Source: a virus (lineage: Duplodnaviria; Caudoviricetes). Taken from it: a DNA stretch of 64,000 bases. The notes beneath the pieces are model-generated. The model saw only the letters and a program-made list of their open reading frames with translations. It ran no database searches and was not told the DNA's origin. The stretch is taken from positions 132,979 to 196,978 of IMG/VR virus record IMGVR_UViG_3300042258_000341; one strand, 5' to 3'. A program made the translations under genes and the position numbers. Each line of letters starts with the position of its first letter. Position 1 is the stretch's first letter. Positions 35,167-56,239 of this stretch are shown here, one piece after another.

Positions 35167-35334
35167 TTACATACTGTTCAATTGCATTTGTCTGTTTTGT
35201 TCTGCAATCATTTTAGAATACTCTGCATTTAAATAACAGATTTCTCCGTAATCCATATCATTCAGATGGTTAGGGCTTATTTTTAGACCCAGAACCAAAC
35301 CGAATTCTATCTTTAGGAGTCCGTCGATCTCCAC
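35167..35334 (-). CDS. Tail assembly chaperone downstream segment (gpT-like), probably frameshift-expressed
   Basis: 55-codon frame VEIDGLLKIEFGLVLGLKISPNHLNDMDYGEI...NSM* overlapping the end of 35270..36196 in the +1 frame, starting right after CCC TTT T. Confidence 0.65.
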   Translation of the reverse strand: MEIDGLLKIEFGLVLGLKISPNHLNDMDYGEICYLNAEYSKMIAEQNRQMQLNSM

Positions 35335-36196
35335 AAAAGGGTTGGACTATTAAGTCCGGATCCCCCAACTCAATTCTGTTTTCAAAGTCACAATGCACTA
35401 GTTTTTCGATCTCAACCCCATCGATAAATTCAGAGGTCGGGGCTTCTTTGTTTTGACATTTAAGTCGAAGAGTCGCCAAGCCGTGATAAAAAACTTTATT
35501 AAGCTCTTCGAGAACCTGCGAATCTTCAGGATTGGCTCCGAAAAGAATATCGTAAGCTTGTTCGAACTCATGTGACCGACACTGTGCAGCAAGGATTGCA
35601 ACTGAATCTTTTTCTTTACCTTCTTTGAAGAGGGTGAAGAAATCTTTTAAAGTAAGAGGGGTGAAAGACATTTCATGATCTTTAATTTCTAAAATTGCGG
35701 GAAGTTCGGGGACTTCTATTTCATCAAAATCCAAAGCATCCAGCATAATATGGTGTTGATTTTTATGTTCGCATTTAAGACAATTGAAAGTAATCAACAA
35801 ATCGTTGTTCCCGACTGAAGACATTTTTCTCAAAAGAGCGATGAATAAAAAGTCTTGGAAGGTTAAATCTTCTTTATCCATTCCGGAGACAGTGATTCCT
35901 TCGAGGATAAATTCATATCTTTGCTTTATTGAAAGCTTGGATTGTGAGAATTTTTTCAGCTCCCCAAATTTGTAAGGAGAGTAAGAAATTTCAACTCCTT
36001 GTGGATAAGGAAGGAATTTAGAAGGTAGTTGTTTAAGATTTACAACGGGAAGGTAGGGTTCTTTTTTTTCAACATTTTTTGTGGGCTTTTCTTCCGTCAC
36101 TTGTGCAGTAACGGTTTCAAGAGAAGGTTGAATAAGAGATTCGGTTTGCGTTTGCAACTCTTGGGGGACAAAAAAAGGTTTTTTAGCTTCCGCCAT
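35270..36196 (-). CDS. Tail assembly chaperone / baseplate hub assembly protein (gp26/gp51-like)
   Basis: LPSKFLPY, L...D..FI.L.R, CxxC; located between tube-like gene and tape measure. Confidence 0.75.
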   Translation of the reverse strand: MAEAKKPFFVPQELQTQTESLIQPSLETVTAQVTEEKPTKNVEKKEPYLPVVNLKQLPSKFLPYPQGVEISYSPYKFGELKKFSQSKLSIKQRYEFILEGITVSGMDKEDLTFQDFLFIALLRKMSSVGNNDLLITFNCLKCEHKNQHHIMLDALDFDEIEVPELPAILEIKDHEMSFTPLTLKDFFTLFKEGKEKDSVAILAAQCRSHEFEQAYDILFGANPEDSQVLEELNKVFYHGLATLRLKCQNKEAPTSEFIDGVEIEKLVHCDFENRIELGDPDLIVQPFCGDRRTPKDRIRFGSGSKNKP

Positions 36197-37149: not shown

Positions 37150-37167
37150 ATTTGTATTTCCTTTCTT

Positions 37168-38310: not shown

Positions 38311-38319
38311 AGAATATCT

Positions 38320-38375
38320 TCTCCTTTATTTCTGTCTTATTTATATATAGTAAAAAATTGAAGAAATTTTCAAAC
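38320..38375 (-). promoter_or_regulatory. Putative promoter sharing a conserved motif with the rIIA promoter
   Basis: Minus strand TTGAAA...TTTTTACTATATATAAATAAGACAGAAATAAAGGAG, near-identical to 60146-60182. Confidence 0.6.
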
Positions 38376-40181
38376 TTTTTTATTTTTCTTTAAATAATTA
38401 ACAGCTATTTCAAAAGCTTCTTCGTTTATCTCTGTTTCCGCTTCCAAATCATTTACAGAAAGCTCTCTTATTTGTATTTCTTCCGGTTTAGCGGGAGTCC
38501 CATCTGTTTTATATAGATTGTCAATAATTTCATCTTGTGTTCTCAATCCCCGGGCATCAAGAATTTTCCCAGAAGGGTCTTTTACGGCATAATGTATGCT
38601 CATTGTATATCCATCAAAATCTTCTTCTTCAAAAGAAACTATTGGGAATCCGGTTTTTTCGTGAAGAGCTAAAGCAAATTCTGCACAATATCCTCTCATA
38701 AACATATCTAAATTAACCGAAGCTTTTTTCCCAAGTCGGATTTGTAAAAGATTTACAAATTCCCGGTATATATCTTGAGGCATTTCCTGATTCATAACAA
38801 AAGCCGCAAAAGCTTCTGCGAAGTCTTCAGAAGGATTATTCTCTCCGTATTCAGTTGTTGAGTGTGGGAGCTTAATTGTTTTATTCACAAAAGAATCCCA
38901 ATAATTAGCCCAATTTCTTATTGCAGAAATCGCTTCTTCGTAAAGAGCCTCTACATTTGCAAACTTAGGGTTTAATCCTTGGCTTTTGTAAAATTCAACT
39001 CTTCCCGGTTTAGGAAGGGCATATCTTGAAACTGCAAAAGCCTTTTCGTTTTCTTCTTTTGTTTCAAGAGTTTCAATTAAGAGAGGCAGATATTTTCCAA
39101 ACCAACCTAAACCCCATGAGGCTTGCGGGTCGAAAATGTTTTTAAAATATTCTCTTCGTAGAGTTTTTATATTCCCCGCTTTCCCCGAGGATTGTAAAAT
39201 AAAATCCAAAGCTTCTTTCATTTCAGAATTCTGTCTTAGTTTATTTGTGAATTTTCGATAATTGAATCTTGAGAAATCCGGGAACTCTTCATTTCGCATA
39301 GGATCATGAATTACCGGACAACAGGAAATTACCAATTTCTTCAATCCAGCAATGTCTTGGGAAGAAATCTTTTTTGTTCTGTTGTGGAAATGAGATGTCC
39401 ATCTTTGTCTTTGCGTTGGAGACAGAAATTTATAATACAGTCTGTGTGCCAATTCATGAGCAAAAGTATTCTCATATTTGTAAGAAGAATTCCATTGATT
39501 CGCCTTCATTACCACTATGTCTTTTGTATAAGAATAATATGCCCCGGCGGATAAATTCTTGTATTCTTTCTGGGATTCATTGTAAACTTGCCCCTCAAGA
39601 GGATTGCTTACAAATACAATAGGATTGTAAAAAACCTTTTCAAATCCCATTCTTTTTATTTTCTCAACAACAGGTTGAAGTTCCTGTAAAACTCTTTTCA
39701 TGTTTTCGTATTGAAATCCAGCATTTAAAACAGAGAAGCCGTTCCATTCAAAAGTGTCTTGTTTGTAACCTCTCCCTTTTAACTCTGTAAAAACAAAACC
39801 ATGCTTTTCAAAAATAGCCGTCAAATCTTCGTTTCGTAAAACAACATCTTGAAAAGTTTCACTTGGAATAGCTGGGTTTTTAGCATCTAACCACATTTCA
39901 ACTTGTAAAACTTTTACTTCAGAAAGAATCCAATCCCATTTTCGTAAAGAATCCAACCCATAAAAACAATACATGTAAAACTGAACTTTTTCATTTTCAG
40001 GATCATTTGCGCCGAGAAAAGTAGATAGTCTTAAATTCCAATTCTTTCGCCATTTCCCCATTTCTTCTTTAAATTCCGGGAAAGAAGAATTAAGACACAA
40101 TGACTTCCCGATTTTCAAAAAATTGGAAACCTTTGTGTAATCCTGTTCTGCTTTATGTAATTGGGAAAAAGATTTGATCAT
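38370..40181 (-). CDS. Tagged cargo: zincin metallopeptidase plus C-terminal Cys-His-Asp (papain/transglutaminase-like) domain
   Basis: MIKSFSQLHKA tag; HELAH and TEYG..N..EDFAEAF; after KKA: GYCAEFALAL...HY...LDARG. Confidence 0.7.
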   Translation of the reverse strand: MIKSFSQLHKAEQDYTKVSNFLKIGKSLCLNSSFPEFKEEMGKWRKNWNLRLSTFLGANDPENEKVQFYMYCFYGLDSLRKWDWILSEVKVLQVEMWLDAKNPAIPSETFQDVVLRNEDLTAIFEKHGFVFTELKGRGYKQDTFEWNGFSVLNAGFQYENMKRVLQELQPVVEKIKRMGFEKVFYNPIVFVSNPLEGQVYNESQKEYKNLSAGAYYSYTKDIVVMKANQWNSSYKYENTFAHELAHRLYYKFLSPTQRQRWTSHFHNRTKKISSQDIAGLKKLVISCCPVIHDPMRNEEFPDFSRFNYRKFTNKLRQNSEMKEALDFILQSSGKAGNIKTLRREYFKNIFDPQASWGLGWFGKYLPLLIETLETKEENEKAFAVSRYALPKPGRVEFYKSQGLNPKFANVEALYEEAISAIRNWANYWDSFVNKTIKLPHSTTEYGENNPSEDFAEAFAAFVMNQEMPQDIYREFVNLLQIRLGKKASVNLDMFMRGYCAEFALALHEKTGFPIVSFEEEDFDGYTMSIHYAVKDPSGKILDARGLRTQDEIIDNLYKTDGTPAKPEEIQIRELSVNDLEAETEINEEAFEIAVNYLKKNKKV

Positions 40182-41959
40182 CTTATTTTCAATTTCCTTA
40201 AAGAAGAAGTGTAAAGGGCTTTTTCTCTTTTGTATTTCATTTCTTCATACTCATTAACATATTTTATTCCAGTTGAGGGATTGATGCCTCCGATATTTCC
40301 ATGTGCCAACTCGATTTGTAAATCTTCCGGAAGAAAAGTTACGCCCGTATCTGTTAAATCTAAATACGAAGAAATTACCATTCCTTTAGGTAAAGTTTTT
40401 AAATTTTTACATCCCCTCAGAATCAATTTTGAACACATAATATTGTCCGGTAAAGAAACGAGATTATTATTATTTTCGAAAGAGACCTCTCCTGAAGTTC
40501 GGATAACTGTGGATTTGGGCACTTCTGAAAAAATAGTATCTTTTGCGTCAAATCGGGAATAAACCCGCAGATTTTCAGGCAATTTTATCAACTTATTACA
40601 TCCCTGAATTATTAATTCACCAAAAGACAAATTATCCGCCATGTGCTTTAATTCGGAAAAAGAAGCATGTAATCCTTGAAAGGAAGCAGTTACTTCTTCG
40701 ACACTTGATTGACTCATATAAACATTGGTGCCAACTTTTAAATCTGAAGGCAATTTCTTCAATTTAAAAGAATGATCTAAATTAAGAAACCCCTCAATCG
40801 TTAATCCTTTTGGAAGTTCTTCTATTTCAGACCATGTTAAATTGAGATACCCTTTTATGGTAAGGTCTTCCGGGAGTGTAATTTTTCGACTCCCGTATAA
40901 ATCAAGGGATTCTCCCACAATTAAAGTTTCCGGTATTTTTTTAAACATACCTTTTAAAGAAACGTCATGAGCCGCTTCTAAGTGTCTGGGGTATTTTTGT
41001 AAGGACTGCCCATCTATTTCAATTTCTATGCTTTTTTTAGACACGATACTTTCGGGCAAAGAAGTTATATAGGGGTTTATAATTCTACAAGTCCCCCCGG
41101 TTTCTAAAAATTTAATTTGAGACAAATCCCCTCGAAAATTGTCTTTTATTGTTAACATTCCTGAAACTTGTAAAAGTTCCGGGAGTTGTTTCATCGGAAA
41201 ATTTAATTTTAAATGCCCCTCCCATATCTCCCGTTTTAACAAGTAAGCTTCTATTTTTTCCGGACATTTTTTAATTAACAAAGGGGTTTCCCCAAAAACT
41301 TTTGCCATAACTTCATAAAGGGTCACATCTATTTGATCAATTGCGTGATCTTTCAAATTCATAAATTGAGACATGTCCCCAGTAATCTGTGCCCATTTTT
41401 CAAGAGAAGTCCCTGTTTTCTTGAAAATAACATAAAGATTATTATTTGTTTCAATATAATGTTCAGCATATCGGGTTCCCGCAGTACACCATTTAGTCCC
41501 AGAAGCTAATTTCGTTGCGGATACAGGATCAATTACTTTTAAAATAAGCCATTCTCTGTTTTGTCCGGCTACAGAAACACCCGGGAGTTGTAAATACTCA
41601 TTCAACTTACTTGAGGTTTCCCCGGAAACTTCAGTTCCTTTTATCTTATCTATCTCAGCTTCAAGATCATGGATTCGTTTATATTGTTGGATATCACGTT
41701 TCTGCAGTTGTTTCTTGTTCGATAAGGTAATAAAATCTTGTAAAACTTGTTTTACACGGTTTCCATCTTCAGGAAGAATTATATTTTGGAAACCCATCTG
41801 CTTAATCACCCAAGCTTCGAATTTCTTTTCTTTTGTAGGATCAACAGCATTTGCCAAAGAAACAACTTGTTCAGGAGTTAATCCTAGCTTCTTGGAAACA
41901 GAATCTATTTGTTGCTGGGTTGCCCCTGCTATTTTGTGTAAAAAGCTTAAATATTTCAT
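40178..41959 (-). CDS. Tagged cargo: WCT-domain (PcfJ-like) protein with degenerate LRRs
   Basis: Start MKYLSFLHKIA (ATGA overlap); GTKWCT; LxLxxxxIxxLPxxL repeats. Confidence 0.75.
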   Translation of the reverse strand: MKYLSFLHKIAGATQQQIDSVSKKLGLTPEQVVSLANAVDPTKEKKFEAWVIKQMGFQNIILPEDGNRVKQVLQDFITLSNKKQLQKRDIQQYKRIHDLEAEIDKIKGTEVSGETSSKLNEYLQLPGVSVAGQNREWLILKVIDPVSATKLASGTKWCTAGTRYAEHYIETNNNLYVIFKKTGTSLEKWAQITGDMSQFMNLKDHAIDQIDVTLYEVMAKVFGETPLLIKKCPEKIEAYLLKREIWEGHLKLNFPMKQLPELLQVSGMLTIKDNFRGDLSQIKFLETGGTCRIINPYITSLPESIVSKKSIEIEIDGQSLQKYPRHLEAAHDVSLKGMFKKIPETLIVGESLDLYGSRKITLPEDLTIKGYLNLTWSEIEELPKGLTIEGFLNLDHSFKLKKLPSDLKVGTNVYMSQSSVEEVTASFQGLHASFSELKHMADNLSFGELIIQGCNKLIKLPENLRVYSRFDAKDTIFSEVPKSTVIRTSGEVSFENNNNLVSLPDNIMCSKLILRGCKNLKTLPKGMVISSYLDLTDTGVTFLPEDLQIELAHGNIGGINPSTGIKYVNEYEEMKYKREKALYTSSLRKLKIR

Positions 41960-42348
41960 TTCTGTTTTTCCCACGCTTTCCAATCCACATCGCTCAATAT
42001 TTCTTCAAGACTGCCAAGTTGTCCCGGATTTTCATCTCTTGTAAGAGTATTCACTACAGAATGTGCTGAAGGAGTCGCTTCATTTCCCTCTATATCAAAA
42101 TAAGTTAATCTCCAATTATTATTGTTTTGAATATCTTTACTTACAATATAAAATTTATCAGGATTTGTTCTTGGCACCCGACCCCCAGCAGGAAGTAATT
42201 TATTATGAATTAACTCTCTTCTACATTTAGTGACATAACGAATTTCTGCAAGATACTCTTCTCTACCCATTGTCTTTCTATCTTCCCTTGTGGGAAAATC
42301 ATATCTGCATTCCTTTTCCAAATAGAGTTGAGAGTATCTTCGGATCAT
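41956..42348 (-). CDS. Tagged cargo: hypothetical protein
   Basis: MIRRYSQL tag; WRLTYFD...P..H. Confidence 0.65.
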   Translation of the reverse strand: MIRRYSQLYLEKECRYDFPTREDRKTMGREEYLAEIRYVTKCRRELIHNKLLPAGGRVPRTNPDKFYIVSKDIQNNNNWRLTYFDIEGNEATPSAHSVVNTLTRDENPGQLGSLEEILSDVDWKAWEKQK

Positions 42349-42824
42349 TTCAATTTTTCCTGTTTGGGTCTTTCAAGAGTAATAAAATTATCACCTAATT
42401 CCGATAAGAATTGAGAGTTGAGCTTTTGAATATCTTCCCGGGAAGCTTGGTATTTAAGGCTGATATGTGGAGAAAAAGTAAAATGCGAATGTTTAAATCC
42501 CTTTCTCAACAAAGAATTATGGAAATCTTTTAATTTATCTGTGGGATCTTTCAGAAGTAAGGTTATTGCTTCCCATTCCCCGGAGCCTAAAGGGAGTAAA
42601 GAACCCGGCAAGACTTTAAAAGACCAATTAGAGTCCATATCTGCAGGAAGATTCGGATCACTTTCATCGTAAATCACCGTGACATGTAATTTTTCAGCCT
42701 TAATCCCATCTTTTACGCCACAGGCTTTTACTGCAGAAACTATTTTTTCTGCATCTTCTTTTTTTACTTTTAAAGAGATGTAACCCCCGAAGGAATTATT
42801 AAGTTGTGAATATTTTTTTATCAT
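42345..42824 (-). CDS. acb1: Tagged cargo: 2H phosphodiesterase, T4 Acb1 (gp57B)-like anti-CBASS nuclease homologue
   Basis: MIKKYSQL tag; two Hx(T/S) motifs, KLHVTVIY and GFKHSHFTFSPHISLKY, with the spacing and context of T4 Acb1 as I recall it. Confidence 0.75.
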   Translation of the reverse strand: MIKKYSQLNNSFGGYISLKVKKEDAEKIVSAVKACGVKDGIKAEKLHVTVIYDESDPNLPADMDSNWSFKVLPGSLLPLGSGEWEAITLLLKDPTDKLKDFHNSLLRKGFKHSHFTFSPHISLKYQASREDIQKLNSQFLSELGDNFITLERPKQEKLK

Positions 42825-43311
42825 TTCTTTTCTCATTTTTCAACAATTCTCGATAGTTAATTGTTGAAAAATAACCCACCATTGCTTTTTCCCCGAAAAT
42901 TAAAATGCACATAGGAAGCCAAAGACCTCTTGGCTCATCATTAAAATTTACTTCCCCGAGTATAAATCTAATTTCTGCTTTTTCAATAACTTCTCCCCAC
43001 CATTTAGTATTAGATCTTACGGGAATCAAACAAACCTTAGTCCCCCCAAATTTATCTGCATCTTCTTGCGCTTTTCTCACCCATTTATTTAAATTCCGGG
43101 TAAAAGGCGGGTTCATCCAACAATTTCCAACCCAGTCTTGTTTTAAAGCGTCTTCTTTTTCCGTAAAATAAGAAGAACATTTAAAGTTGTCCTCATTAGC
43201 ACAAACATCTAAAGAGAAATTAAATTCTTTTTGTAAGAGATTAAAAAGCACAAGGGGGGTGCTATATTCCACTTTATTGCTTATAAAATTATTTTCTTTA
43301 CCAATGCCCAT
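42799..43311 (-). CDS. Phage DNA N6-adenine methyltransferase (phage Dam family)
   Basis: TP..LF..L..EF.F.LDVCA, DAL..DW, WMNPPF, LIPVRSNT.WW, IRFI.G. Probable start MGIGKE. Confidence 0.9.
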   Translation of the reverse strand: MGIGKENNFISNKVEYSTPLVLFNLLQKEFNFSLDVCANEDNFKCSSYFTEKEDALKQDWVGNCWMNPPFTRNLNKWVRKAQEDADKFGGTKVCLIPVRSNTKWWGEVIEKAEIRFILGEVNFNDEPRGLWLPMCILIFGEKAMVGYFSTINYRELLKNEKRNDKKIFTT

Positions 43312-43341
43312 GTCACACCTCTTTCTTAAAATAGTTTTCAA

Positions 43342-43938
43342 TTATTTTTTCACAGGAGGTTGTGGGTCATACCCCCACTCATGCAAAGAATTACCTTCTG
43401 TAAATAAATCCCGGGCAAATACTGTTTTCGAAAGAATTCTGTATTTGCCGTTTAAGTTACTTTTCCCATGATCCACCGCATATTGTTTACAAATAGTCAC
43501 CCAATCCCCCGGATTAATTGTTATTTTTTCATCTTTAGATTCCGGAAGAGCTTTCAGCCTATTTATTTCATCATACAAGAAATCGTAATATTCTGAAGAA
43601 TTTCTCCAGTTATCGACCCCCGGAGGTAATTTTCCGTTCTTTAAAATATACTGTTTGTGTTTCAGAAATTCGTTTATCTTTTCTTCGTTTGTAAGAACTT
43701 TCGGCACGGCTCTGTAAACAGGGATTTTTGCATTCGGTTTATTTCTGTAATATTGGATAATCCCGGCACTTAAATGGTCAAAAGGACTCCCATCCCCATA
43801 ATATCTTGCGGCATTTATACTGTAAATATCTTCAGGATAAATACCAACAGGGTTGTATAAAGGCGCACCATTTGTATGGTCAGGGGCTTCATGCCCTCCC
43901 CGGTAATCTTCTTCAAGTTGTGAATATTTTTTTATCAT
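43342..43938 (-). CDS. Tagged cargo: putative ADP-ribosyltransferase-fold protein
   Basis: MIKKYSQL tag; DYRGGHEAP, VYRAVP, INPGDWVT..Y, EWGY (R / T / E arrangement). Confidence 0.5.
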   Translation of the reverse strand: MIKKYSQLEEDYRGGHEAPDHTNGAPLYNPVGIYPEDIYSINAARYYGDGSPFDHLSAGIIQYYRNKPNAKIPVYRAVPKVLTNEEKINEFLKHKQYILKNGKLPPGVDNWRNSSEYYDFLYDEINRLKALPESKDEKITINPGDWVTICKQYAVDHGKSNLNGKYRILSKTVFARDLFTEGNSLHEWGYDPQPPVKK

Positions 43939-43944
43939 GTTTTA

Positions 43945-44247
43945 CTACCCGGTAAAATATTTTTTGTTCATTACATATTGTTTTTCGAACACTTCTTTAC
44001 CAAATATGGCACAAGCTCCTACGTGATCTGCAATTAAATCTGCGATTTCACAGTGTCCATTTGGATCAAAGAAATCGTAAATTTCTTTTCCCAGTCCGAT
44101 CAACATTGTTAACAAGTAACACAAAGATTTTATCGGAAGATATTTACACATAAAAACAATCCCGGCAGATGTTTTTATGTGTAAAACTTTGTCAGCCTGA
44201 ATTCCTGTAAAATCAAAGTTATTTACAAAATCAGGAATAATCATCAA
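43945..44247 (-). CDS. Small membrane protein (VanZ/YfiM-like)
   Basis: DKVLH...hydrophobic...GKEIYD...DLIAD; no tag. Confidence 0.6.
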   Translation of the reverse strand: MMIIPDFVNNFDFTGIQADKVLHIKTSAGIVFMCKYLPIKSLCYLLTMLIGLGKEIYDFFDPNGHCEIADLIADHVGACAIFGKEVFEKQYVMNKKYFTG

Positions 44248-45001
44248 ATTTCCCTTCAGGGAGTTCCCCTTTTATTTGATGCGTTTTTATTCCGTATTGT
44301 TTATACAATGCATTTTCCATTGTATAGTGCATTGCATCTCCCGACATCCAAAGATATTCATTTCCTTTTTCATCGTAAGTGTGTCGAGATTTAGGCTCCC
44401 CTTTTGGGGCAAATGGAAACTCTTCTCTAAATCTCTTTGCTATTTCAGTATATGCTTCCGGAGAAGGATTTTTATATACGGGGATTTTTCTTTCTACATA
44501 TTTCCCGGGGAGAGAAACTATTAAAAGATTATCTTTTTTAGCCGTGTGTTTATTATGCGCCAATTTCCAGATATATTCATTGAAATCATCCCAAGATAAA
44601 TCCGTTAAAACCGAAAGAGGGTTGTCTTTTATATTAACTTCCGCAAATAAAGGCTTCCCTAAAAGTTTTGCGGCATAATATCTATGGTGCCCATCTTCAA
44701 TATTAAAAACCCCGTTCTCAAAAGAGACTTGGATTGGGGTTTTTAAAGAAACCGTTTTTGCCCATTTTTCAGGAGACAACCCACTTTGCGCTATTTGATA
44801 AAAAACATTATCCATATCCCCCGGGTATTTAATATTTAATTTTTCAGGATTTAATTTTAAAATATCCCCGTCTGAAAAGCCAAAAGCCGCTTTATCCAAT
44901 CCTTCAGTAGAGACCATGAAATTAACAGGATTGTCTATCTTTTCCGCTTCTTTTATTAAAGGTAAAAGTCTTTTCTTAAGTTGAGAATACTTCTTAATCA
45001 T
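44231..45001 (-). CDS. Tagged cargo: ParB/Srx-like domain protein plus second small domain
   Basis: MIKKYSQL tag; PIQV...IEDGHHRYYAA. Confidence 0.7.
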   Translation of the reverse strand: MIKKYSQLKKRLLPLIKEAEKIDNPVNFMVSTEGLDKAAFGFSDGDILKLNPEKLNIKYPGDMDNVFYQIAQSGLSPEKWAKTVSLKTPIQVSFENGVFNIEDGHHRYYAAKLLGKPLFAEVNIKDNPLSVLTDLSWDDFNEYIWKLAHNKHTAKKDNLLIVSLPGKYVERKIPVYKNPSPEAYTEIAKRFREEFPFAPKGEPKSRHTYDEKGNEYLWMSGDAMHYTMENALYKQYGIKTHQIKGELPEGKFDDYS

Positions 45002-45771
45002 CCCATTTCTTCTTTCAAATTCACATACAGATTATACAATCTTTTATTGAATTTACGAGAGTTTTCCGGGGAAAGGTTTTTTATCCAATCTTCTTTAAAG
45101 AAATAAACGATATCTTCTTTGAAAGAGATAAAGTTTTGCATGATGCTGAAGAATCTTTCAGGGTTGAATTCTTTAATTTTATTCAAAACATTCTTTATTG
45201 AAATTGCCGCTTCTTGATAATAAGAATTCATTTCTGCCGGATCGTTAAAATAGTTGTAAGCTTCATCTGAAATATCTAAATCCGGTAAAGGCAAATTTCT
45301 TTTTACTTCCGGGGATTCTAATTTATCTTTTCTTCTACAAGCATCAAGATAATGAATGTATTCATGAACAAAAGTTTGCTTATTCAATCTCGTATCGGCA
45401 TGTTTAAAGTCATAAGGCTTTATCAAGAAATTAAGGATTATTACGGCATATTTTTTATTTGGAGTCCAGCCGAACCCCCCAGTCATAATTGTATTTTGAT
45501 TTTTTTCTCGACTATGCGCAAAAATAAAAATCAAAGGATGTTTCCCCTGTATGTTACCCTCGGCTGAAAACTTTTCTTCTATTTTAGAAGCCTTAACTGC
45601 ATACCCTTCCCTATTATCTACCGGCACAACAAAAGAGGGTAAATGGGGAGTTTCTGACATCTGCTTTAAAAAGTCCCTTACAAGTTCATAAGCAATATTG
45701 GCTTTATTTCTAAAATATAAATCTTGTTCTTCATTCGCAGCAGATTTAAGTTGGGAATATTTTCGGATCAT
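44998..45771 (-). CDS. Tagged cargo: HExxH metallopeptidase
   Basis: MIRKYSQLKSA tag; FVHEYIHYLD...YFNDPAEMNSY. Confidence 0.7.
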   Translation of the reverse strand: MIRKYSQLKSAANEEQDLYFRNKANIAYELVRDFLKQMSETPHLPSFVVPVDNREGYAVKASKIEEKFSAEGNIQGKHPLIFIFAHSREKNQNTIMTGGFGWTPNKKYAVIILNFLIKPYDFKHADTRLNKQTFVHEYIHYLDACRRKDKLESPEVKRNLPLPDLDISDEAYNYFNDPAEMNSYYQEAAISIKNVLNKIKEFNPERFFSIMQNFISFKEDIVYFFKEDWIKNLSPENSRKFNKRLYNLYVNLKEEMG

Positions 45772-46949
45772 CGAAAACCTCTTTGTAGGAAAGTTTCTTT
45801 ATCCCCGAAGAAAGTAGCATCCCCGATAATTACAGAAATGTCGGAGACTTTTTGATGTTTGATAAAATTTTTTATGTTTTTTTCTGCTTTCGGGGATTCG
45901 GAATAAAATTCATGAGTTCCTTTTTTCAAGAAATCCGCTGTTACTTGAGTCCATCCGTTTTCCAACAGATATTCTTTTACCCGGTTTCCTACGGAATCTC
46001 CTTCAAAGAAATCTTCATTTACATCTATTTCCACATCTTGCAGGATTTCTTCCGGGACAGATATTTCCCCGGAATTAAACATTTCCGCCAAAGCTTCTTC
46101 ATGATCTTTCCCGGGAGGCAAAGGCAACCATTTCCCGTTATTATCCAAGAACCCATTGTATTTCTTCTCCGGTAACAGAGCAGATAAATATCCGGAAGGA
46201 GTTTGTGGAGCTGTGAATTGGACTTTATTATCAAGAGTTTCCAAGAGTTGATTGTATTTTTCCTCTGTAATTGAATACGAAGAAAGATTTCGAATATCTC
46301 TTGCAACAGGAATCCCAATTGTTAAAGGACTTGTTGATATTCCCGCATATATAGGATTGTTATATGTCCAACGATATCTCCGAAGCATATCAAAAAACAT
46401 ATGTTCTTTTTCCGGGGTTAAATCCGAAAGATATTTCTTGTTAAGTTTTGCAACAGAATATTGATCTTCCCCTCTTTTTGTAATGAAAATAAGGCTTGCC
46501 GGGATTTTTTGACCACTTACCGGAACGTCTTCGATATCTTCAGAAAGAGGGACATCCACTCCCAGATATTTCAATCTGCGTATTTCATTTTGGAAATAAC
46601 CTTCGTGTCCTGCATATTCTCTCATAAGCCATTTCGGAGCATTAGAAGGAACTTGATTCATAAGATGCACATGAATCATTTCATGAAGCATAATCTTTTC
46701 GAGCAATTCCGGAGTGAATTGATATTTGTTACTGATTTTAATACCTTTTAATTGAACCTCTTTTACCGCCCCGTTAGGAGAAACTATCATCGTTGCATGG
46801 GCTTGCCCGTATGCCTTAGAAATTCCCGCCCATGTTATAGGGACTTCGGGAACTTTATTGTCGAAATATTTTCTGTTCAATTCCCGGAAAAGAGCCGTTA
46901 AATTTGTTTTTCGGATATCATTTGTAAGTTGAGAGTATTTCTGGATCAT
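45768..46949 (-). CDS. Tagged cargo: SprT-like metallopeptidase plus second domain
   Basis: MIQKYSQL tag; F..LN.KYF.N, LHEMIH, GH...F. Confidence 0.8.
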   Translation of the reverse strand: MIQKYSQLTNDIRKTNLTALFRELNRKYFDNKVPEVPITWAGISKAYGQAHATMIVSPNGAVKEVQLKGIKISNKYQFTPELLEKIMLHEMIHVHLMNQVPSNAPKWLMREYAGHEGYFQNEIRRLKYLGVDVPLSEDIEDVPVSGQKIPASLIFITKRGEDQYSVAKLNKKYLSDLTPEKEHMFFDMLRRYRWTYNNPIYAGISTSPLTIGIPVARDIRNLSSYSITEEKYNQLLETLDNKVQFTAPQTPSGYLSALLPEKKYNGFLDNNGKWLPLPPGKDHEEALAEMFNSGEISVPEEILQDVEIDVNEDFFEGDSVGNRVKEYLLENGWTQVTADFLKKGTHEFYSESPKAEKNIKNFIKHQKVSDISVIIGDATFFGDKETFLQRGFR

Positions 46950-48670
46950 TTATCTTTCTCCGGGTTGCTGAATTCAGATTCACTTTCATCAGGGTCATCA
47001 ACCACTTTTAGTTTTCTCAAATCATATCTCGGGCAATGTTCAGGATGCGTATGTGTAAATTCATCTCCATCTACAGATACTTTATGGGGGAAATAATCTG
47101 TTTGTTGTTTTACATATTCCCGGTTTCTTCCGGGGTAAGCATTTCCCGGGTCAGGACGGATATCGTAAATGTTTTGGAAATCTCCGCTGAAATCTGCTTT
47201 TTTTGCATATTGTTTTCTACGCAAACCTTCGGAATAAAATTCTTCAGGAGTTCCTTGAAATAAATACCCCCCTTGTCTTGTTTCTACAAGGATTTTACTT
47301 ACAGAAGGATTGAGTAGTCGGGGAAGTTTAGAATGTAATTTTTTCACAGAATTAAAATCTTCACATTCGAAATTTACAACATTACCTTTCAATCCTTGCC
47401 AACGATTATCTTGCCCCCCAAAATATCGTATCCAGCCGTCAATAAATGCCATTGCGGAATCATCTTCCATTTCAAATTCAGCGTCTTCATATCCCCCGTA
47501 TTTTTCATTTATAACTGAATCTCGGGCTTTTCCAGAGGGTTGATAAACATATTCCATTATTAATTCCCCCAAAACCCGATCATGTTCTGAACCGTTTGTT
47601 AAATAAATGTCACCCTCTGGAGAAAGCCACCCGGAGTTTTCTGAAGAAATTTCAGATCCTTCTGTGATTTGATAGTCCATGCCTTCAAAATCTGCTTTTT
47701 TAACCAATACACTTAAATAGTTCATATTCTTTTTCCCGGAGTACATTTTATATCTGCGAAGGCTTTTCAAGAAATCCCCATCTACTTCTTCCATCGGGAC
47801 ATTGAAATAGTAGGTTTTGGTTTTGTTATCTTGGATGCCAATTTTCATACTGTAAGCATCTTCATCGTAAATCTGCACAAAAGCTTTTCTTATTTTATCC
47901 AACTTGGAAGCATCCAAAGAGCCTACTTCGACTTGATCCTGTGCAATTCGAATGCCGTTCAATTTATTCAAAGCATAGTCCCGAAAATGTTGATTAGAGT
48001 TATACATAAATTCCAATTCTTCAGGATCTATATTTGGATCATTCTCTAAATATTTCTGTATTATTTGCGCATGTCCTTCTTCAGAAGCATCATACAATTT
48101 ATTATGAATATACCAATAATCCCCAACATCTGCTTTTCTTTTTCGAGAAGCGTATTGTTTTCTTCTTAAACCATCTTCCAGAAATTCTTCCTTTGAGCCG
48201 GTGAAATTATAATTAATTTTTTCAACTTCCACCCATATTTTAGGACTGCGAATTCTCACTTTTTCTTGTTTAATAAATTTATGGAGTTTTTTCAAAACTT
48301 CGAAATTATAACATTCAAAGTTTACAACAGCCCCTTCAATTCCTGCCCATCTTCCATCTTCCCCGCCGAAAAAACGTATCCAACCATCAGCCATGCCCAT
48401 TGCAACAAAATAATCGGGAAATATCCCGCCGTTTTCATCCCGGTAATCTTTTTCTTCTCTACCCACAGTAACTTCTTTAAAAGCTCGTTCGGAAGGAGTG
48501 TATTCCCCGGCATCATGGATTTCCATAAGAACATCTGAATGTTCTTGGTCAGGATTATCAAGAAAATAAATAATTCCTGTAGGACTTATCCAACCGGAAC
48601 TTTCAGAATCTAACATATAATTGCCTTTAACGTATTCTGCTTTTTTTACAAGAAACCCTAAATAATTCAT
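46946..48670 (-). CDS. Tagged cargo: multi-module polyprotein-like hypothetical
   Basis: MNYLGFLVKKA at the start and MNYLSVLVKKA internally; duplicated GW.SP.G...EH..VL...DGWIR.FGG module. Confidence 0.7.
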   Translation of the reverse strand: MNYLGFLVKKAEYVKGNYMLDSESSGWISPTGIIYFLDNPDQEHSDVLMEIHDAGEYTPSERAFKEVTVGREEKDYRDENGGIFPDYFVAMGMADGWIRFFGGEDGRWAGIEGAVVNFECYNFEVLKKLHKFIKQEKVRIRSPKIWVEVEKINYNFTGSKEEFLEDGLRRKQYASRKRKADVGDYWYIHNKLYDASEEGHAQIIQKYLENDPNIDPEELEFMYNSNQHFRDYALNKLNGIRIAQDQVEVGSLDASKLDKIRKAFVQIYDEDAYSMKIGIQDNKTKTYYFNVPMEEVDGDFLKSLRRYKMYSGKKNMNYLSVLVKKADFEGMDYQITEGSEISSENSGWLSPEGDIYLTNGSEHDRVLGELIMEYVYQPSGKARDSVINEKYGGYEDAEFEMEDDSAMAFIDGWIRYFGGQDNRWQGLKGNVVNFECEDFNSVKKLHSKLPRLLNPSVSKILVETRQGGYLFQGTPEEFYSEGLRRKQYAKKADFSGDFQNIYDIRPDPGNAYPGRNREYVKQQTDYFPHKVSVDGDEFTHTHPEHCPRYDLRKLKVVDDPDESESEFSNPEKDK

Positions 48671-48697
48671 ATCTGTTACCTATTCCGGGGAAAATAA

Positions 48698-48725
48698 AAA
48701 ACTCTTCTACAAAGAGAAGAGTTTT
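48698..48725 (-). terminator. Rho-independent terminator
   Basis: AAAACTCTTCT / AGAAGAGTTTT stem, with a T tract on the minus strand after 48747..49361. Confidence 0.65.
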
Positions 48726-48746
48726 ATCACTTAATAAACAGGAGGC

Positions 48747-49361
48747 TCATGCTCGATATTCTTTTACACTTCCGTCCGGATTTAATTCAAATTCCGTTGC
48801 AAATTTGTCCCATTCTTCAACAGAATTAAGATGTTTCTGCATTTCTTGTAAAAAAACAATAGCCGTTTTCCAATCTCTTTTCCCAATCGAAACACAAGTC
48901 TGTCGAGCCAACCATTGTGCTCGGTTGTAGACTTTCAGTTTACTATGTTCTTTTGCATAATCTTCAAGAAGACTAAAAACTTTAATTCTTTCCGCTTCTG
49001 GGTCTTTTCCGCCATATTTAGCATTGTTCTTTATATTCTCCAACATTTCACGTTGAAAGCCGTAATCGTTTTGTAAATAATACAAAACATCTCTCACTTT
49101 CTTCGAAACATATTCGAAGCCTGTTCGGTAGGGAGAATCAGAATTCCACTTTAACATGTGTGTCATACGATGAATAATATCCCCAGCATGTTCAACAACA
49201 GGGTTTAAAACTCCGCCCCCGTAAACACGTTGTATTTTCAACATTGCCCCTTCCGGAAGAACTCTTTGTTCTTCTCCTGTAGAAACAAAAGCGTCTCTTA
49301 CTTGTTGTGGAATATCGGGAGCATCATTTGCTTTTTTAAGAGTTGAATATTTTTTTATCAT
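48747..49361 (-). CDS. Tagged cargo: hypothetical protein
   Basis: MIKKYSTLKKA tag; VEHAGDIIHRM. Confidence 0.7.
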   Translation of the reverse strand: MIKKYSTLKKANDAPDIPQQVRDAFVSTGEEQRVLPEGAMLKIQRVYGGGVLNPVVEHAGDIIHRMTHMLKWNSDSPYRTGFEYVSKKVRDVLYYLQNDYGFQREMLENIKNNAKYGGKDPEAERIKVFSLLEDYAKEHSKLKVYNRAQWLARQTCVSIGKRDWKTAIVFLQEMQKHLNSVEEWDKFATEFELNPDGSVKEYRA

Positions 49362-49366
49362 TTTTG

Positions 49367-50731
49367 TTAAACCCCCCAGTCATGTTCCAATAATTCCGGA
49401 AGAAACCCCTCTTTTTTTAAAAGTTTTCGAAATTCTTTAAAGGCTTTGGGGTCTTCTTTCAATAGTTGTAAGATTAAAGAAGAAGATTGTTGGAAGAAAT
49501 TGTAGAATTCAATAAGAAACGCCCTATTTGAAGGTATCTGGATCCGAGAATCTATTTTTCTTTTTGAAAAAATAGTGATAAATAGCTTCAACCAACCTTC
49601 TTTGGTATTAAATTCTTTTGAGTCTTCTTCATTTAATTCCGGAACAACTAACTGTTTAAAATATTCCCAAAGGTCTTCAACATTTAATTCTTGCCAATGC
49701 TTGTCTGTCCAAAGGTCTTCAAATAAAAACTCCTCTAACGATTCTATACGCATTTCCCCGACATTGACAGCATATTGTAAAACAGTGGAAACACTCTCAC
49801 AAGAATAAGGAGAATAATACTCAAAAGCATGATGTTTTACGCCATATTCCACAGCAAAACCCCAGTCAGAGTCTGAAGGTTCTCTACCAGAATACCCCCC
49901 AAATTCGTAGTCAAAGTATTTTTCCACCAATTCTTTACTAGCATTACCATCGTTTAAAAGATACCATATCTCGTCCGTGTCTCCAGTTTTTACAGCTAAA
50001 TTAAATAAAGCAACGTCTGCATGAGGAATATTTCCTGACATAAACATTTTTTGTATATCTTCAACCAAATACCTATCTACTGTGACAGGATAATCATCAA
50101 CATCCATAACCTGATCAAAAGTGTCCTCGAATTGAATTTCTTTTTCAAGACTATTGCCTATATCATCATATACAATATAGACTCGCCCAGTTATTGCTTG
50201 AGAAAGATAATGTTGTGCGTAAGTTTCCCCCCCGTTGTAATCTTTACGAGTACACCATTTCGTCCCCATGCCTAAAGTTTCGAGAGAATCTTTATCTGAA
50301 ATAGCAGCTATGACATAAGAACTTCCTTCGAAGACCTGAACTCCGGGGAATTTCCGTAATCTTTCGATAGTTAAAATTTCTTTTTCATTAAACTCAACCT
50401 TGCTCTTTTCTTCAAGTTCTTTTTCGAGATCATGAATTTTAGGATATTGATTTATATCCCGGAACTTAAGTTGTCTTTTGTTGCTGTAAACGATAAAATT
50501 ATTGAGAACTTGTTGAACCCGGGCATTGTCTTCTGGCAATCGTATGTTTTTATTACTTAACTGTCGAATCAGCCAAGATTCAAATTTCTTCTCTGGGGTA
50601 GGATCTGCGGCATTTACTAAGTTTAATAATTCTTCCGGAGAAGACAACTTTAATTTTTTTACCGCTGAATCTATTTGTTGTTGAGTAGCCCCCGCAACTT
50701 TATTTAAATTCGAAAACTTAAGAATCGACAC
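49367..50731 (-). CDS. Tagged cargo: WCT-domain (PcfJ-like) paralog with acidic helical C-terminus
   Basis: GTG start, SILKFSNLNKVA tag; GATQQQIDS, ADPT, LPED, GTKWCT. Confidence 0.75.
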   Translation of the reverse strand: MSILKFSNLNKVAGATQQQIDSAVKKLKLSSPEELLNLVNAADPTPEKKFESWLIRQLSNKNIRLPEDNARVQQVLNNFIVYSNKRQLKFRDINQYPKIHDLEKELEEKSKVEFNEKEILTIERLRKFPGVQVFEGSSYVIAAISDKDSLETLGMGTKWCTRKDYNGGETYAQHYLSQAITGRVYIVYDDIGNSLEKEIQFEDTFDQVMDVDDYPVTVDRYLVEDIQKMFMSGNIPHADVALFNLAVKTGDTDEIWYLLNDGNASKELVEKYFDYEFGGYSGREPSDSDWGFAVEYGVKHHAFEYYSPYSCESVSTVLQYAVNVGEMRIESLEEFLFEDLWTDKHWQELNVEDLWEYFKQLVVPELNEEDSKEFNTKEGWLKLFITIFSKRKIDSRIQIPSNRAFLIEFYNFFQQSSSLILQLLKEDPKAFKEFRKLLKKEGFLPELLEHDWGV

Positions 50732-50733
50732 TT

Positions 50734-51846
50734 TTAACCCCTTTTTCGTAAGGAAGAATATTTTACAATTCTTTGTGAAGCATTATGTTTATAATAGATA
50801 GGCAAGCCTTTTGTATCGAAAGGGGCTTGAGTTACTTTCTCAAATCTAAATTTCTCCGGTATCTTTTTATATAAATGCGTAGGGGGTTCATCTGGCACGG
50901 TTTCTGAAATTATTTCAGGAGAAGAAATATAAATCTCCATTCCTCTATTTTCTTCAAGAAACGCGGAAAGTAAAACTTCGAAATAATTATCCACATATTT
51001 AGAAAGAGTGTTTTCGATTTCCTGTACTTTTTCTTCTCCCCCGAGTTGTCGCACTATTTGCATATACATTTGTTCCGACATCCCGAAATGTTCCAAACCT
51101 TTTTTTATTCTGTGAAATATTCGATATAAATCTGTTTGGACTTGTTCAATAAACAAAGTGTTTTCATCTATTTCACGATAAAGAACCCATCCGAATGTTT
51201 TTCCGGGGATACCTACAGACTCTTCATGCACACCGTTTGCCAACATTTCATTTACAAAAATATCGAAACTTCGATCTCTTTCTTTACCTATCTCTTTCAG
51301 TAAATCCTTAATAGTAAGAATAAATGTTTTTCGGGGGAATTTTTTAACTGTAGGTAAGGTTTGGATAGATTCCCCGTAAGTCCCTTGCATAACCGTAAAA
51401 TTCTTTCTTTCTGTATAGAAATCCATAAATTGTGAAGCGTCTTGGAAAGAAAGCCCTTTTGGGAATTTCTGCAAGATAAAAGCCTTTACCTCTGGGTTTT
51501 GGAAAAAAGATTGTTTTCTTAATTCAACAGTAGGAACATTTCTGTTTTCTTTCTTAAGGAAAGAGCGTAATTCGGAATATGCTTTTTGCACAGAGAAAGG
51601 TAAAAAGGATTTTTCCGAAACATTCTGACTGGAACGATCAATCCCTATTTGTTTATGTAAACTCATTAATTCTTGAGCCGCATAAGGGGGAATACGATTA
51701 GATTCCCGTTTCATTACTTCGGTAACGGTTTGTATTATCGCTTTAGAAATTGTTTCCGCTAATTCAGGAAAGTCTCTGTAAGCTTTTTTAAAATCAGAAG
51801 TGTTATGTGTTGTCAGAAGTTTTTGTAATAGTTGCTCAGGATTCAT
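50734..51846 (-). CDS. Cargo with C-terminal tag; polyvalent-protein-type domain
   Basis: H....GW...LFIEQVQTD motif; ends HNASQRIVKYSSLRKRG. Confidence 0.65.
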   Translation of the reverse strand: MNPEQLLQKLLTTHNTSDFKKAYRDFPELAETISKAIIQTVTEVMKRESNRIPPYAAQELMSLHKQIGIDRSSQNVSEKSFLPFSVQKAYSELRSFLKKENRNVPTVELRKQSFFQNPEVKAFILQKFPKGLSFQDASQFMDFYTERKNFTVMQGTYGESIQTLPTVKKFPRKTFILTIKDLLKEIGKERDRSFDIFVNEMLANGVHEESVGIPGKTFGWVLYREIDENTLFIEQVQTDLYRIFHRIKKGLEHFGMSEQMYMQIVRQLGGEEKVQEIENTLSKYVDNYFEVLLSAFLEENRGMEIYISSPEIISETVPDEPPTHLYKKIPEKFRFEKVTQAPFDTKGLPIYYKHNASQRIVKYSSLRKRG

Positions 51847-53453
51847 TTATTCACATCCAACTTTCTCAAGAAACTCGAAGTTTTTCTCTTCTTCATTTCA
51901 TTGTATTCTTCTTGATATTTTTTCCCCGTTGCCGGGTTGGTTCCGTATATACCCCATTCAACAGTTAATCCCTCTGGAAGTTTTGTTATTGCTGTTCCTT
52001 CAAGGTCTAAATTACCGCCAACAGTTGTTAAGCTCTCTGGAAGTTTTGTTATTGCTGTTTCTTCAAGGTCTAAATCACCACCGACAGTTGTTAAGCTCTC
52101 TGGAAGTTTTGTTATTGCTGTTCCGTAAAGGTTTAAATTACCACCGACCGTTGTTAAGCCTTCAGGAAGTTTTGTTATTGCTGTCCCTCTAAGGTCTAAA
52201 TAACCACCGACAGTTGTTAAGCTCTCTGGAAGTTTGGTTATTGCTGTTCCTTCAAGGAATAAAGAACCACCGACAGTTGTTAATCCCTCTGGGAGTTTTG
52301 TTATTGAGGTTCCTGAAAGGTCTAAATAACCACCGATAGTTGTTAAGCCTTCAGGAAGCTTTGTTATTTTTGTTCCTCGAAGGTCTAAATAACCACCGAT
52401 AGTTGTTAAGCCTTCAGGAAGCTTTGTTATTGCTGTTCCTTCAAGGAATAAAGAACCACCGACAGTTGTTAAGCCTTCAGGAAGCTTTGTTATTTTTGTT
52501 CCTCGAAGGTTTAAATTACCGCCAACAGTTGTTAATCCCTCTGGAAGCTTTGTTATTTTTGTTCCTCGAAGGTCTAAATAACCACCGATAGTTGTTAAGC
52601 CTTCAGGAAGCTTTGTTATTGCTGTTCCGTAAAGGTCTAAATCCCCACCGACAGTTGTTAAGCTCTCTGGAAGTTTTGTTATTGCTGTTCCTAAAAGGTT
52701 TAAATCTTCTTTAATTTCCGCTCCTTGTTTCTCAAGCCAAGGATAAATTGCATTAGGATTTCTTTTTATAAAACTAAGGGGAACTTCCACAAATTTACTT
52801 TCTATCAAAGAAAACAAACTGTCTGGGATTTCTTTTATTTCATGATCTTTTACGTTCTTAAATTGGCTGAAATCTTCCGCAAACTGTGCGTATTTAACAA
52901 GTTTTCCGTTCTGTTTCTTGAAAGCAACGTATTGTTTTGTATTATCTTCAACAATATACTTGTTAGCCCATTGTAAGTGTCTTGTACACCATTCTGTTGA
53001 ATCTCCTAAAACAGTAAGCGACTTAGGATCGCTTACTTCAAGAATAAACCATTTGTTGTTTTGTCCAAGTACAGAAACTCCCGGAAGCTTCAAGAATTCT
53101 TGAACATCGTAACTGTATGCATCTCCAAGCTCTTTCGGGAGAAGGGTTTCTATTTCATTCTCAAGGTCAACAATGTTTTTGTATTGATTTATGTTTTGGA
53201 ACTTAAGTTGATTCCTGTGATTTAATTGTTCGAACTGTTTAAGAGTTTTCTTAACCCTATCTGCATCTTCGGGAAGGATAATGTTTCTGAAACCCATTTG
53301 TTTAAGAAGCCAAACTTCGTATTTACTTGTTGGATCAACTTCATGGGCAAAAGAAACTACTTGTTCGGGAGTTAACCCTAGTTTCTTGGAAACAGAATTG
53401 ATCTGTTCTTTCGTTGCTTTTGCGATATGAAGTTGGGAATATTTCAGTATCAT
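51843..53453 (-). CDS. Tagged cargo: WCT-domain paralog with 12 leucine-rich repeats
   Basis: MILKYSQLHIA tag; STEWCT; (LTTVGGxLxLxGTxITKLPEG)n. Confidence 0.85.
   Translation of the reverse strand: MILKYSQLHIAKATKEQINSVSKKLGLTPEQVVSFAHEVDPTSKYEVWLLKQMGFRNIILPEDADRVKKTLKQFEQLNHRNQLKFQNINQYKNIVDLENEIETLLPKELGDAYSYDVQEFLKLPGVSVLGQNNKWFILEVSDPKSLTVLGDSTEWCTRHLQWANKYIVEDNTKQYVAFKKQNGKLVKYAQFAEDFSQFKNVKDHEIKEIPDSLFSLIESKFVEVPLSFIKRNPNAIYPWLEKQGAEIKEDLNLLGTAITKLPESLTTVGGDLDLYGTAITKLPEGLTTIGGYLDLRGTKITKLPEGLTTVGGNLNLRGTKITKLPEGLTTVGGSLFLEGTAITKLPEGLTTIGGYLDLRGTKITKLPEGLTTIGGYLDLSGTSITKLPEGLTTVGGSLFLEGTAITKLPESLTTVGGYLDLRGTAITKLPEGLTTVGGNLNLYGTAITKLPESLTTVGGDLDLEETAITKLPESLTTVGGNLDLEGTAITKLPEGLTVEWGIYGTNPATGKKYQEEYNEMKKRKTSSFLRKLDVNK
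51961..52705 (-). repeat. Twelve 63-bp tandem repeats encoding 21-aa LRRs
   Basis: ACAGTTGTTAAG recurs with a 63-bp period (e.g. 52021, 52084). Confidence 0.95.
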
Positions 53454-54037
53454 TTCTTTTCCACCGCTTTTTCGAGAATTCTTTCTATTACAGAAATCAA
53501 CATGTAAATCTTACGTGTTTGTGTTTTTGTAAAATTCCAACGAATTCCGATATTCTTTTTTGCCCAATCCCGGGGGGATTTTCGTTCTCTTTCCCACGCA
53601 ACAGCCGACCAATCACAAACCATTTCAACAAGAGATTTTGTAGGCATATTTGAAGCATCAATTAGTTTACCGGAACTTTTATCTCGATCTTCGGGATTTA
53701 TTTGTGCATTTTCTTTATCCCAAAATTCGGCATGATGTTCATTTTGAGTGATATGTGCGAGAGTTGCTAAATCACATTGTTTCTGCATTTCGTCCGAAAG
53801 AATGTAATCGGGATTTTTATACTTCCATGTAATTTCTACATAAGGTGTTTTTAAAGGTTCTTGCAATTTATCCGCATCGTGTTCGGAGAAATTCCAATCA
53901 TCAGGCAATGCCGGGATTTCTTCTTTCAGCAACTTGTAAAACATATTTACAAGTTCAATATGTTTTTTTGTTCTTTCTATAAAATGTGCTTCTTTTTCTC
54001 TCTCAAAAGACATAGCCCGATATCCTTTTATTCTCAA
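53450..54037 (-). CDS. HD-like (DUF5662-type) protein
   Basis: T.KH, HDADK, H...N.HHAE.W, EMVCDW.A. Start is either TTG 54037 or ATG 54013. Confidence 0.65.
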   Translation of the reverse strand: MRIKGYRAMSFEREKEAHFIERTKKHIELVNMFYKLLKEEIPALPDDWNFSEHDADKLQEPLKTPYVEITWKYKNPDYILSDEMQKQCDLATLAHITQNEHHAEFWDKENAQINPEDRDKSSGKLIDASNMPTKSLVEMVCDWSAVAWERERKSPRDWAKKNIGIRWNFTKTQTRKIYMLISVIERILEKAVEKK

Positions 54038-54039
54038 AA

Positions 54040-56238: not shown

Positions 56239-56239
56239 A

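Follow-up and report, generated by a model that had tools for sequence, protein, structure and literature searches.

We analyzed a short N-terminal peptide tag that opens otherwise unrelated proteins in a 64-kb stretch of phage DNA (the window, i.e., the final 64 kb of IMG/VR record IMGVR_UViG_3300042258_000341, record positions 132,979-196,978) and in the whole of that record (G000; 196,978 bp, estimated to be 82% complete; coordinates marked G000 follow the numbering of the record). The tag is conserved as a peptide and lies on about 26 to 27 of the ~247 open reading frames (ORFs) found in a whole-record scan, or about one-tenth of them. In homologous proteins of phages with T4-type head genes, its place is taken by a start resembling the capsid targeting sequence (CTS) of phage T4. 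We consider it fairly probable from these sequence comparisons that the tag is a CTS-like label for loading proteins into a head that is not of T4 type. More tentatively, the tag may represent a second, independently spelled capsid-cargo code, by which a phage with a non-T4 head would carry about one-tenth of its proteome as a pre-made arsenal of injected counterdefense proteins.

The tag occurs in two spellings. Class A (consensus M-I-x-[KR/S]-[YF]-S-x-L) opens ten minus-strand ORFs in the window, one of them (start position 50731) with a GTG start codon. Class B (consensus M-[KN]-Y-L-x-x-L-x-K-x-A) opens another two and has a second, internal copy that begins at position 47725 within a 574-aa ORF (all start positions are given in Table 1). 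There is also a C-terminal copy, I-V-K-Y-S-S-L, at positions 50749-50769 in the ORF at 50734-51846. An earlier sequence-only reading of the window had listed 13 copies, and all of them were found where it had placed them. The peptide is often extended by [KRH]-x-A to a total of about 11 residues; I2, Y5, L8, and often A11 follow each other at a spacing of three residues, and K or R stands at positions 3, 4, 9, and 10.

Chance as the origin of the tag is excluded. G000 and its sister phage G001 (224,066 bp, 90% complete; capsid protein with 90% identity) together have 485 ORFs that are 90 aa or longer; 42 of these start with a match to a loosened version of the motif, where 0.14 would be expected. 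Scores from a position-specific scoring matrix (PSSM) were bimodal, with tagged starts at 15.9 bits or more, the best untagged start at 1.0, and nothing between. All 42 starts have Y or F at position i, and all 42 have L or I at position i+3.

The conservation is at the level of the peptide, as the sequence-only reading had proposed. The third codon positions of I2, Y5, S6, and L8 have an entropy of 1.5-1.8 bits, whereas the first and second positions are invariant; isoleucine is encoded by ATT, ATC, or ATA, serine by TCT, TCC, TCA, or TCG, and leucine by five different codons. The 20 bases upstream from tagged starts are purine rich and otherwise unconserved. Since the third positions are free and the upstream DNA is unconserved, the conserved object is the peptide and not a DNA or RNA element, and the codon data exclude a translation element as the explanation for the conservation. 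Homologous bodies can bear either class: the 574-aa protein has a class B tag in G000, and its G001 homolog has a class A tag. Homologs of a conserved 204-aa protein still start with M-I-x-[KR]-Y-S-x-L-[KR]-x-A at identities as low as about 49%.

Residues 9-18, which follow the tag, are polar or charged and contain no hydrophobic core, so that the tag does not qualify as a Sec-type signal peptide. A conserved secreted 163-aa protein of low-GC (25-31%) organisms, seen at loci L139, L140, and L150 and at about 25 others, opens with the identical eight residues and then runs into a classical hydrophobic signal-peptide core ending in A-S-A; its likeness to the tag is coincidental and adds spurious matches when the tag pattern is scanned for. 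When IMG/VR and metagenome contigs were scanned with exact patterns, no large relative besides G001 was found, and most of the other matches were due to chance or to the unrelated secreted protein; the small metagenome contigs L143, L144, L149, L171, and L190 also carried in-frame tagged starts. The first six residues of the tag, taken as an exact string, had no match in the literature searched.

Structure prediction and domain boundaries both place the tag outside the folded part of the proteins. In the AlphaFold2 (AF2) model of the 204-aa protein, the mean predicted local distance difference test (pLDDT) score is 88.5, and residues 1-12 score below 50; the model shows a well-folded body, for which Foldseek found no convincing fold match, with the tag as a disordered extension. 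Conservation and disorder end together at about residue 11 or 12, the same length as the T4 CTS. Pfam domains open just behind the tag, at residue 13 (profile position 2) for Acb1, at residue 18 for SprT-like, and at residue 33 for ART-PolyVal, an ADP-ribosyltransferase (ART) domain. Each tagged protein has one recognizable domain and is encoded by a separate gene, and at least 17 body clusters that are unrelated by BLAST carry the tag in G000. The bodies in the window had been described as mostly unrelated; three tagged window proteins are paralogs with a common N-terminal domain of about 200 aa, so that about ten distinct bodies remain.

Twenty-two of the tagged genes of G000 lie in three tightly packed clusters that are co-oriented with structural operons and embedded in them. 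The first cluster (G000 32781-35451) is directly upstream from a gene block (G000 35485-38932) for the head maturation protease (phrog_18299), a protein that is probably the scaffold, a 172-aa protein, and the major head protein, and the second (G000 49767-61098) is upstream from the tail sheath gene (phrog_23). The third is the window cassette, which extends from the portal to the baseplate genes. The description of the tagged genes as portal adjacent is too narrow, as equal clusters stand beside the protease, scaffold, and capsid genes and beside the tail sheath gene. In the cluster beside the protease gene, the first tagged gene directly follows an untagged DUF5661 gene (G000 32083-32784). 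In G001, which has about 20 tagged ORFs, the largest cluster again adjoins the protease gene. No core protein of replication or metabolism is tagged, and the tag is absent from every polymerase, helicase, recombinase, reductase, and terminase.

Several of the cargo types read from the letters of the window were recovered by profile searches. The 2H phosphodiesterase matches Pfam Acb1 above the cut-off (49.9 bits versus 27), and both H-x-[TS] motifs are present in the translation; its activity is predicted. The leucine-rich repeat (LRR) body is supported by Pfam LRR_1 (6.8e-08). Besides a SprT-like metallopeptidase, two proteins in the window have an HExxH motif, one of them with a weak MPTase-PolyVal match. 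The assignment of ParB-like bodies held for the protein at 43342-43938 (phrog_2579, 2.6e-33) but is weak for the one at 44231-45001 (PHROG, 6e-4). No ART-like protein was confirmed in the window; an ART-PolyVal domain (1.3e-11) sits outside it, at G000 32781, and other tagged cargo outside the window includes a class I methyltransferase and a protein with a weak PARP-like match. The repertoire of ART-PolyVal, MPTase, 2H, ParB-like, and methylase domains has been assigned to proteins that are delivered with invading DNA (Iyer et al., PMC5512222), and T4 Alt, an ADP-ribosyltransferase, is the classical head-packaged injected enzyme (PMC5512222). The cargo of the tag has the same repertoire as proteins for which packaging and injection are known or predicted. 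Inhibition of the cyclic oligonucleotide-based antiphage signaling system (CBASS) by a virion-borne protein has been described for an ejection protein of another phage, which uses another mechanism (bioRxiv 10.1101/2025.07.23.666291).

Tag type and head-gene type in four genomes

That the tag has the function of a CTS, but with a different head, is argued most strongly by the finding that homologous bodies carry a T4-type CTS at the place of the tag and that, in these four genomes, the type of tag tracks the type of head genes. Loci with relatives of the 204-aa protein were taken from IMG/VR, and common N termini were screened without prior assumption. Tag type and head-gene type were then compared in G000, G001, G002 (IMGVR_UViG_3300025012_000028; 214,553 bp, 90% complete; loci L109-L119), and G003 (a complete 181-kb phage).

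The head genes of G002 are of T4 type, with an S77 protease (2e-17), gp23 (2e-74), and a gp24-like paralog. About 18 to 20 ORFs of this genome start with M-I-S-F-[KR]-x-[FY]-[LI]-x-E; position 4 is F in 19/20, position 7 is F or Y in 19/20, position 8 is L or I in 19/20, and position 10 is E in 17/20. The T4 CTS is MKTYQEFIAE (PMC8442874), and mutational work has linked its residues 4 and 7 to targeting and residues 8 and 10 to processing (PMC9026906); it is at these four residues that the G002 pattern agrees with it. The T4-type start is present on the G002 ortholog of the 204-aa protein (45% identity; E value, 2e-47) and on two G002 ART-PolyVal proteins (3.2e-19 and 1.1e-07); a third family common to G000 and G002 is weakly supported. 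G003 likewise has an S77 protease (1.6e-38), together with a T4-type start on its member of the 204-aa family and on two other ORFs. Strict counts of class A versus T4-type starts were 20/0 in G000, 17/0 in G001, 0/14 in G002, and 0/3 in G003, and on these counts the two tag types are mutually exclusive within each of the four genomes.

The ORFs of G002 with a T4-type start flank gp24 (cluster L060:9267-18012), with ART-PolyVal and ART-GNAT proteins among their products, and the candidate internal proteins of this genome are far more numerous than those of T4. Other lineages with the 204-aa family have common starts of their own: M-N-E-M-R-K-L-M-E-x-I-E is found on three ORFs in L069 (IMGVR_UViG_3300033388_001351), and a short common start, M-R-L-x-E-I, is found in several other loci of the family (L072, L065, and L070).

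The head genes on the other side of the comparison are of a different type. Pfam S77 and Gp23 gave no match in G000 (82% complete) or G001 (90% complete), comparison of the G000 protease family with the S77 profile by hhalign gave a probability of 0.15%, and the T4-type pattern of a hydrophobic-x-Glu site at residues 8-10 is absent in G000 and G001. The tag had been called sequence distinct from the T4 CTS; the lack of hydrophobic-x-E and of a T4-type protease bears this out, but Y5 and L8 mirror T4 residues 4 and 7, so that the distinction is not complete. The major head protein of G000 has 286 aa (phrog_2522, 1.7e-50; G000 38072-38932, L042:18072-18932), and the 172-aa protein is encoded between the scaffold and capsid genes. 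A major head protein of this length is unusually small for a jumbo head (~200- to 240-kb phage), and its gene stands beside that of a separate acidic scaffold. AF2 gave only a poor model for the head protease (pLDDT, 55.6), and a profile search of PDB sequences with this protease gave no match; its C terminus is tag-like by impression only. In distant phages with the same head module (L049-L054), the protease carries a long, fused C-terminal extension (544-972 aa), and the scaffold N terminus keeps an invariant R-x-x-L-[ST].

Proposed head loading and its rivals

We infer that synthesis of the tagged proteins takes place late and from the structural operons, and that the basic tag would dock them on a component of the assembling procapsid, which may be the scaffolding core, the portal, or the inner capsid surface. 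The docked proteins would then become enclosed in the head, and the tag may be trimmed by the prohead protease, whose gene adjoins one of the clusters. In the next infection, the cargo would exit with the DNA and act ahead of phage gene expression: Acb1 would destroy CBASS signals, and the targets of the ADP-ribosyltransferases, metallopeptidases, and ParB-like and LRR proteins would belong to the host or its defenses. An address label of this kind had been suggested in the sequence-only reading. It gains support from the position of the tag, which extends freely from the N termini of unrelated proteins of late operons, from the CTS on their homologs, and from the matching cargo, while encapsidation, removal by the protease, and injection are put forward here as predictions.

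A number of points weigh against head loading. The phage is uncultured, and loading, cleavage, and injection are predictions from its sequence. Five of the tagged G000 genes are located apart from structural genes. Only about half of the tags have the [KRH]-x-A extension, and no uniform cleavage motif follows the tag; as the head protease is not S77-like, the processing rules of T4 are not transferable. Phages with the same type of head module, at 35-42% protease identity, have no common tag in the DNA examined. The scaffold N terminus was considered as a relative of the tag and was dropped, as it was not among the 25 best untagged starts by PSSM. Finally, 26 cargo species of up to 600 aa would be a large load for one head.

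The alternative that survives best is that the tag is recognized not by the procapsid but by another phage machine, be it a modifying enzyme, a chaperone, or an adaptor, or that it loads the tail or ejection apparatus rather than the head. Two of the three clusters adjoin tail sheath and baseplate genes, which would be in keeping with the latter. However, no radical-SAM or other modifying enzyme was found among the conserved untagged neighbors, and recognition by another machine explains the swap less well, as the tag stands at the position of a T4-type CTS on homologs and its type follows the head genes. We regard this alternative as unlikely.

Somewhat less likely again is that a host factor reads the tag as a degron or as a chaperone or export signal that differs with the host. 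The tag does vary between phage lineages, as would be expected if the hosts differ, and it resembles the basic n-region of a signal peptide, to the extent that the secreted 163-aa protein shares its eight residues. In the phage proteins, however, it is not continued by a hydrophobic core, and the environmental phages G002 and G003 use the pattern of T4, an E. coli phage, which is better accounted for by shared head genes than by a shared host.

It is also improbable, and more so than recognition by a host factor, that the tags are functionless leftovers of gene-start duplication and cassette recombination. Such an origin would fit the vestigial C-terminal copy, the fused double-tag ORFs, and the paralogy of some tagged proteins, but eight residues are held in more than 40 genes, and in orthologs to ~49% identity, while synonymous sites and bodies diverge, and the spread of the tag over at least 17 BLAST-unrelated body clusters of G000 argues in the same direction. 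The least probable explanation is an mRNA translation-initiation element or a nascent-peptide effect; although AAA-rich codons 3 and 4 could help initiation, Y-S-x-L is kept via different codons with free third positions and unconserved upstream DNA, internal and C-terminal copies exist, and homologous genes of a related phage carry a quite different peptide.

Our preferred explanation, a CTS-like label for a non-T4 head, is directly testable, since the tags are swapped on orthologous proteins.

Gene content of the window cassette

The portal gene heads a tightly packed, leftward-oriented minus-strand operon in which the cassette is followed by baseplate and tail genes (Table 1). The portal protein has a low-complexity C-terminal tail of ~70 residues that is rich in Gly, Asp, Glu, and Met. 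The 574-aa ORF consists of two homologous units arranged head to tail, each with its own class B tag; an ORF of the sister phage (G001 137359-138480) likewise contains an internal tag, of class A, at residue 147. In the 370-aa ORF, the tag-like peptide lies eleven codons before the stop codon and just ahead of the next tagged gene, and this C-terminal copy is probably what is left of a tagged gene that has been lost. At the cassette's downstream end, positions 37168-38310 encode a 380-aa protein with three CxxC...WKP zinc-ribbon repeats (weak Stc1 and SBP matches). A promoter scan found sites no more frequently than in shuffled sequence and provides nothing on the timing of expression.

Table 1. 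Features of the portal-to-baseplate region, in window coordinates and in the order of transcription
Feature	Coordinates	Strand	Tag class and start	Evidence
Portal protein, first gene of the operon	54040..56238	-		phrog_16240 8.3e-14; tblastn to Tunturi_5 annotated portal 2e-26
Untagged DUF5662 protein, between portal and first tagged gene	53450..54037	-		Pfam DUF5662 2.2e-22
Tagged 536-aa protein, N-domain plus leucine-rich repeats	51843..53453	-	A, 53453	Pfam LRR_1 6.8e-08; member of N-domain family
370-aa ORF without N-terminal tag	50734..51846	-		Tag-like C terminus, 50749-50769
Tagged 454-aa member of N-domain family, GTG start	49367..50731	-	A, 50731	
Tagged conserved 204-aa all-helical protein (bridging ortholog)	48747..49361	-	A, 49361	AF2 model; G002 ortholog
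Terminator-like hairpin after the 204-aa gene	48698..48725	-		11-bp stem, T tail
574-aa tandem fusion, two class B units	46946..48670	-	B, 48670	Second tag starts at 47725
Tagged 393-aa SprT-like metallopeptidase	45768..46949	-	A, 46949	Pfam SprT-like 1.7e-07, domain from residue 18
Tagged 257-aa protein with HExxH motif	44998..45771	-	A, 45771	Motif from translation; no family match in Pfam or PHROG
Tagged 256-aa ParB-like protein, DGHHR motif	44231..45001	-	A, 45001	PHROG ParB-like nuclease 6e-4, weak
Untagged 100-aa ORF	43945..44247	-		Weak VanZ match only
Tagged 198-aa protein like C-terminal part of phage ParB-type proteins	43342..43938	-	A, 43938	phrog_2579 2.6e-33
Untagged Dam-type N6-adenine methyltransferase within the cassette	42799..43341	-		Pfam Dam 3e-28
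Tagged Acb1-type 2H phosphodiesterase (anti-CBASS family)	42345..42824	-	A, 42824	Pfam Acb1 3.7e-13
Tagged 130-aa protein	41956..42348	-	A, 42348	Tagged homologs in G001
Tagged 593-aa protein, ~200-aa N-domain plus repeat-rich C terminus	40178..41959	-	B, 41959	12-member paralog family
Tagged 603-aa protein, HExxH zincin-like core	38370..40181	-	A, 40181	Pfam MPTase-PolyVal 0.0031, weak; G001 ortholog tagged
T4-type baseplate protein	35270..36196	-		Pfam T4_baseplate 1.3e-07
Baseplate wedge protein	24131-25753	Same strand as cassette		

Comparison with known systems

The CTS found on T4's internal proteins was reportedly the subject of work by Mullaney and Black in 1996. The T4 CTS is present on IPI, IPII, and IPIII, which are internal proteins, and on Alt (PMC9026906, PMC3012670), and the T-even internal proteins form a diverse, defense-countering set that is united only by the CTS (PMC3012670). 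The tag resembles the T4 CTS in being an N-terminal peptide of about ten residues common to unrelated, fast-changing proteins of predicted counterdefense function, in having aromatic and hydrophobic residues three apart, although shifted by one residue compared with T4, and in having an ART among its cargo. It differs in being basic, with an invariant Ser and no hydrophobic-x-E. The genome that carries it is without the S77 protease, gp22, and gp23 and has the 286-aa head protein and an unrelated protease, and the number of cargo genes, with loading predicted from the genes, is about 26, compared with a handful in T4. Since the tag lacks the hydrophobic-x-E site and the S77/gp22/gp23 head, we do not file it as a member of the T4 CTS.

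Polyvalent proteins share with the tagged proteins the domain repertoire, the late or virion gene context, and the predicted delivery with DNA, but they combine 2 to 15 domains in one giant polypeptide, whereas the domains described here are encoded by separate small tagged genes (PMC5512222). In giant phages of the phiKZ/SPN3US type, ejection proteins have propeptides of mostly 80 to 130 residues ending in A/S-x-E, and the protease that processes them is a homolog of T4 gp21 (PMC5694885). In those giant phages, many internal head proteins are loaded via N-terminal regions, and the paralogs gp53 and gp54 have an identical 15-residue start (PMC5694885); the propeptides are, however, much longer than the tag, with A/S-x-E sites and a gp21-type protease.

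The principle of a short head-loading tag on diverse counterdefense proteins is thus already known. What is new is the different spelling, its proposed use with a non-T4 head, the scale of about 10% of the genes, and the Acb1 cargo. If our interpretation is correct, head loading by an N-terminal tag would not be a peculiarity of T4 but a portable principle that different types of head spell differently, and some large phages would apply such a tag to about one-tenth of their genes. Injected proteins, which are otherwise invisible for uncultured phages, could be listed from sequence only; Acb1-like enzymes would be predicted to arrive pre-made with the DNA, ahead of phage transcription; and new short tags would become available for packaging and delivering foreign proteins in phage heads.

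A further parallel is provided by the cargo peptides of encapsulins, which are short and terminal and address diverse cargo to the inside of a shell with the HK97 fold. The 286-aa major head protein is of encapsulin size. Encapsulin peptides differ from the tag in their spelling and in that they are usually C-terminal. If the tag is indeed a head-loading label, short-tag cargo loading might be a general property of HK97-fold heads that can be reinvented, linking the T4 CTS with the encapsulin peptides.

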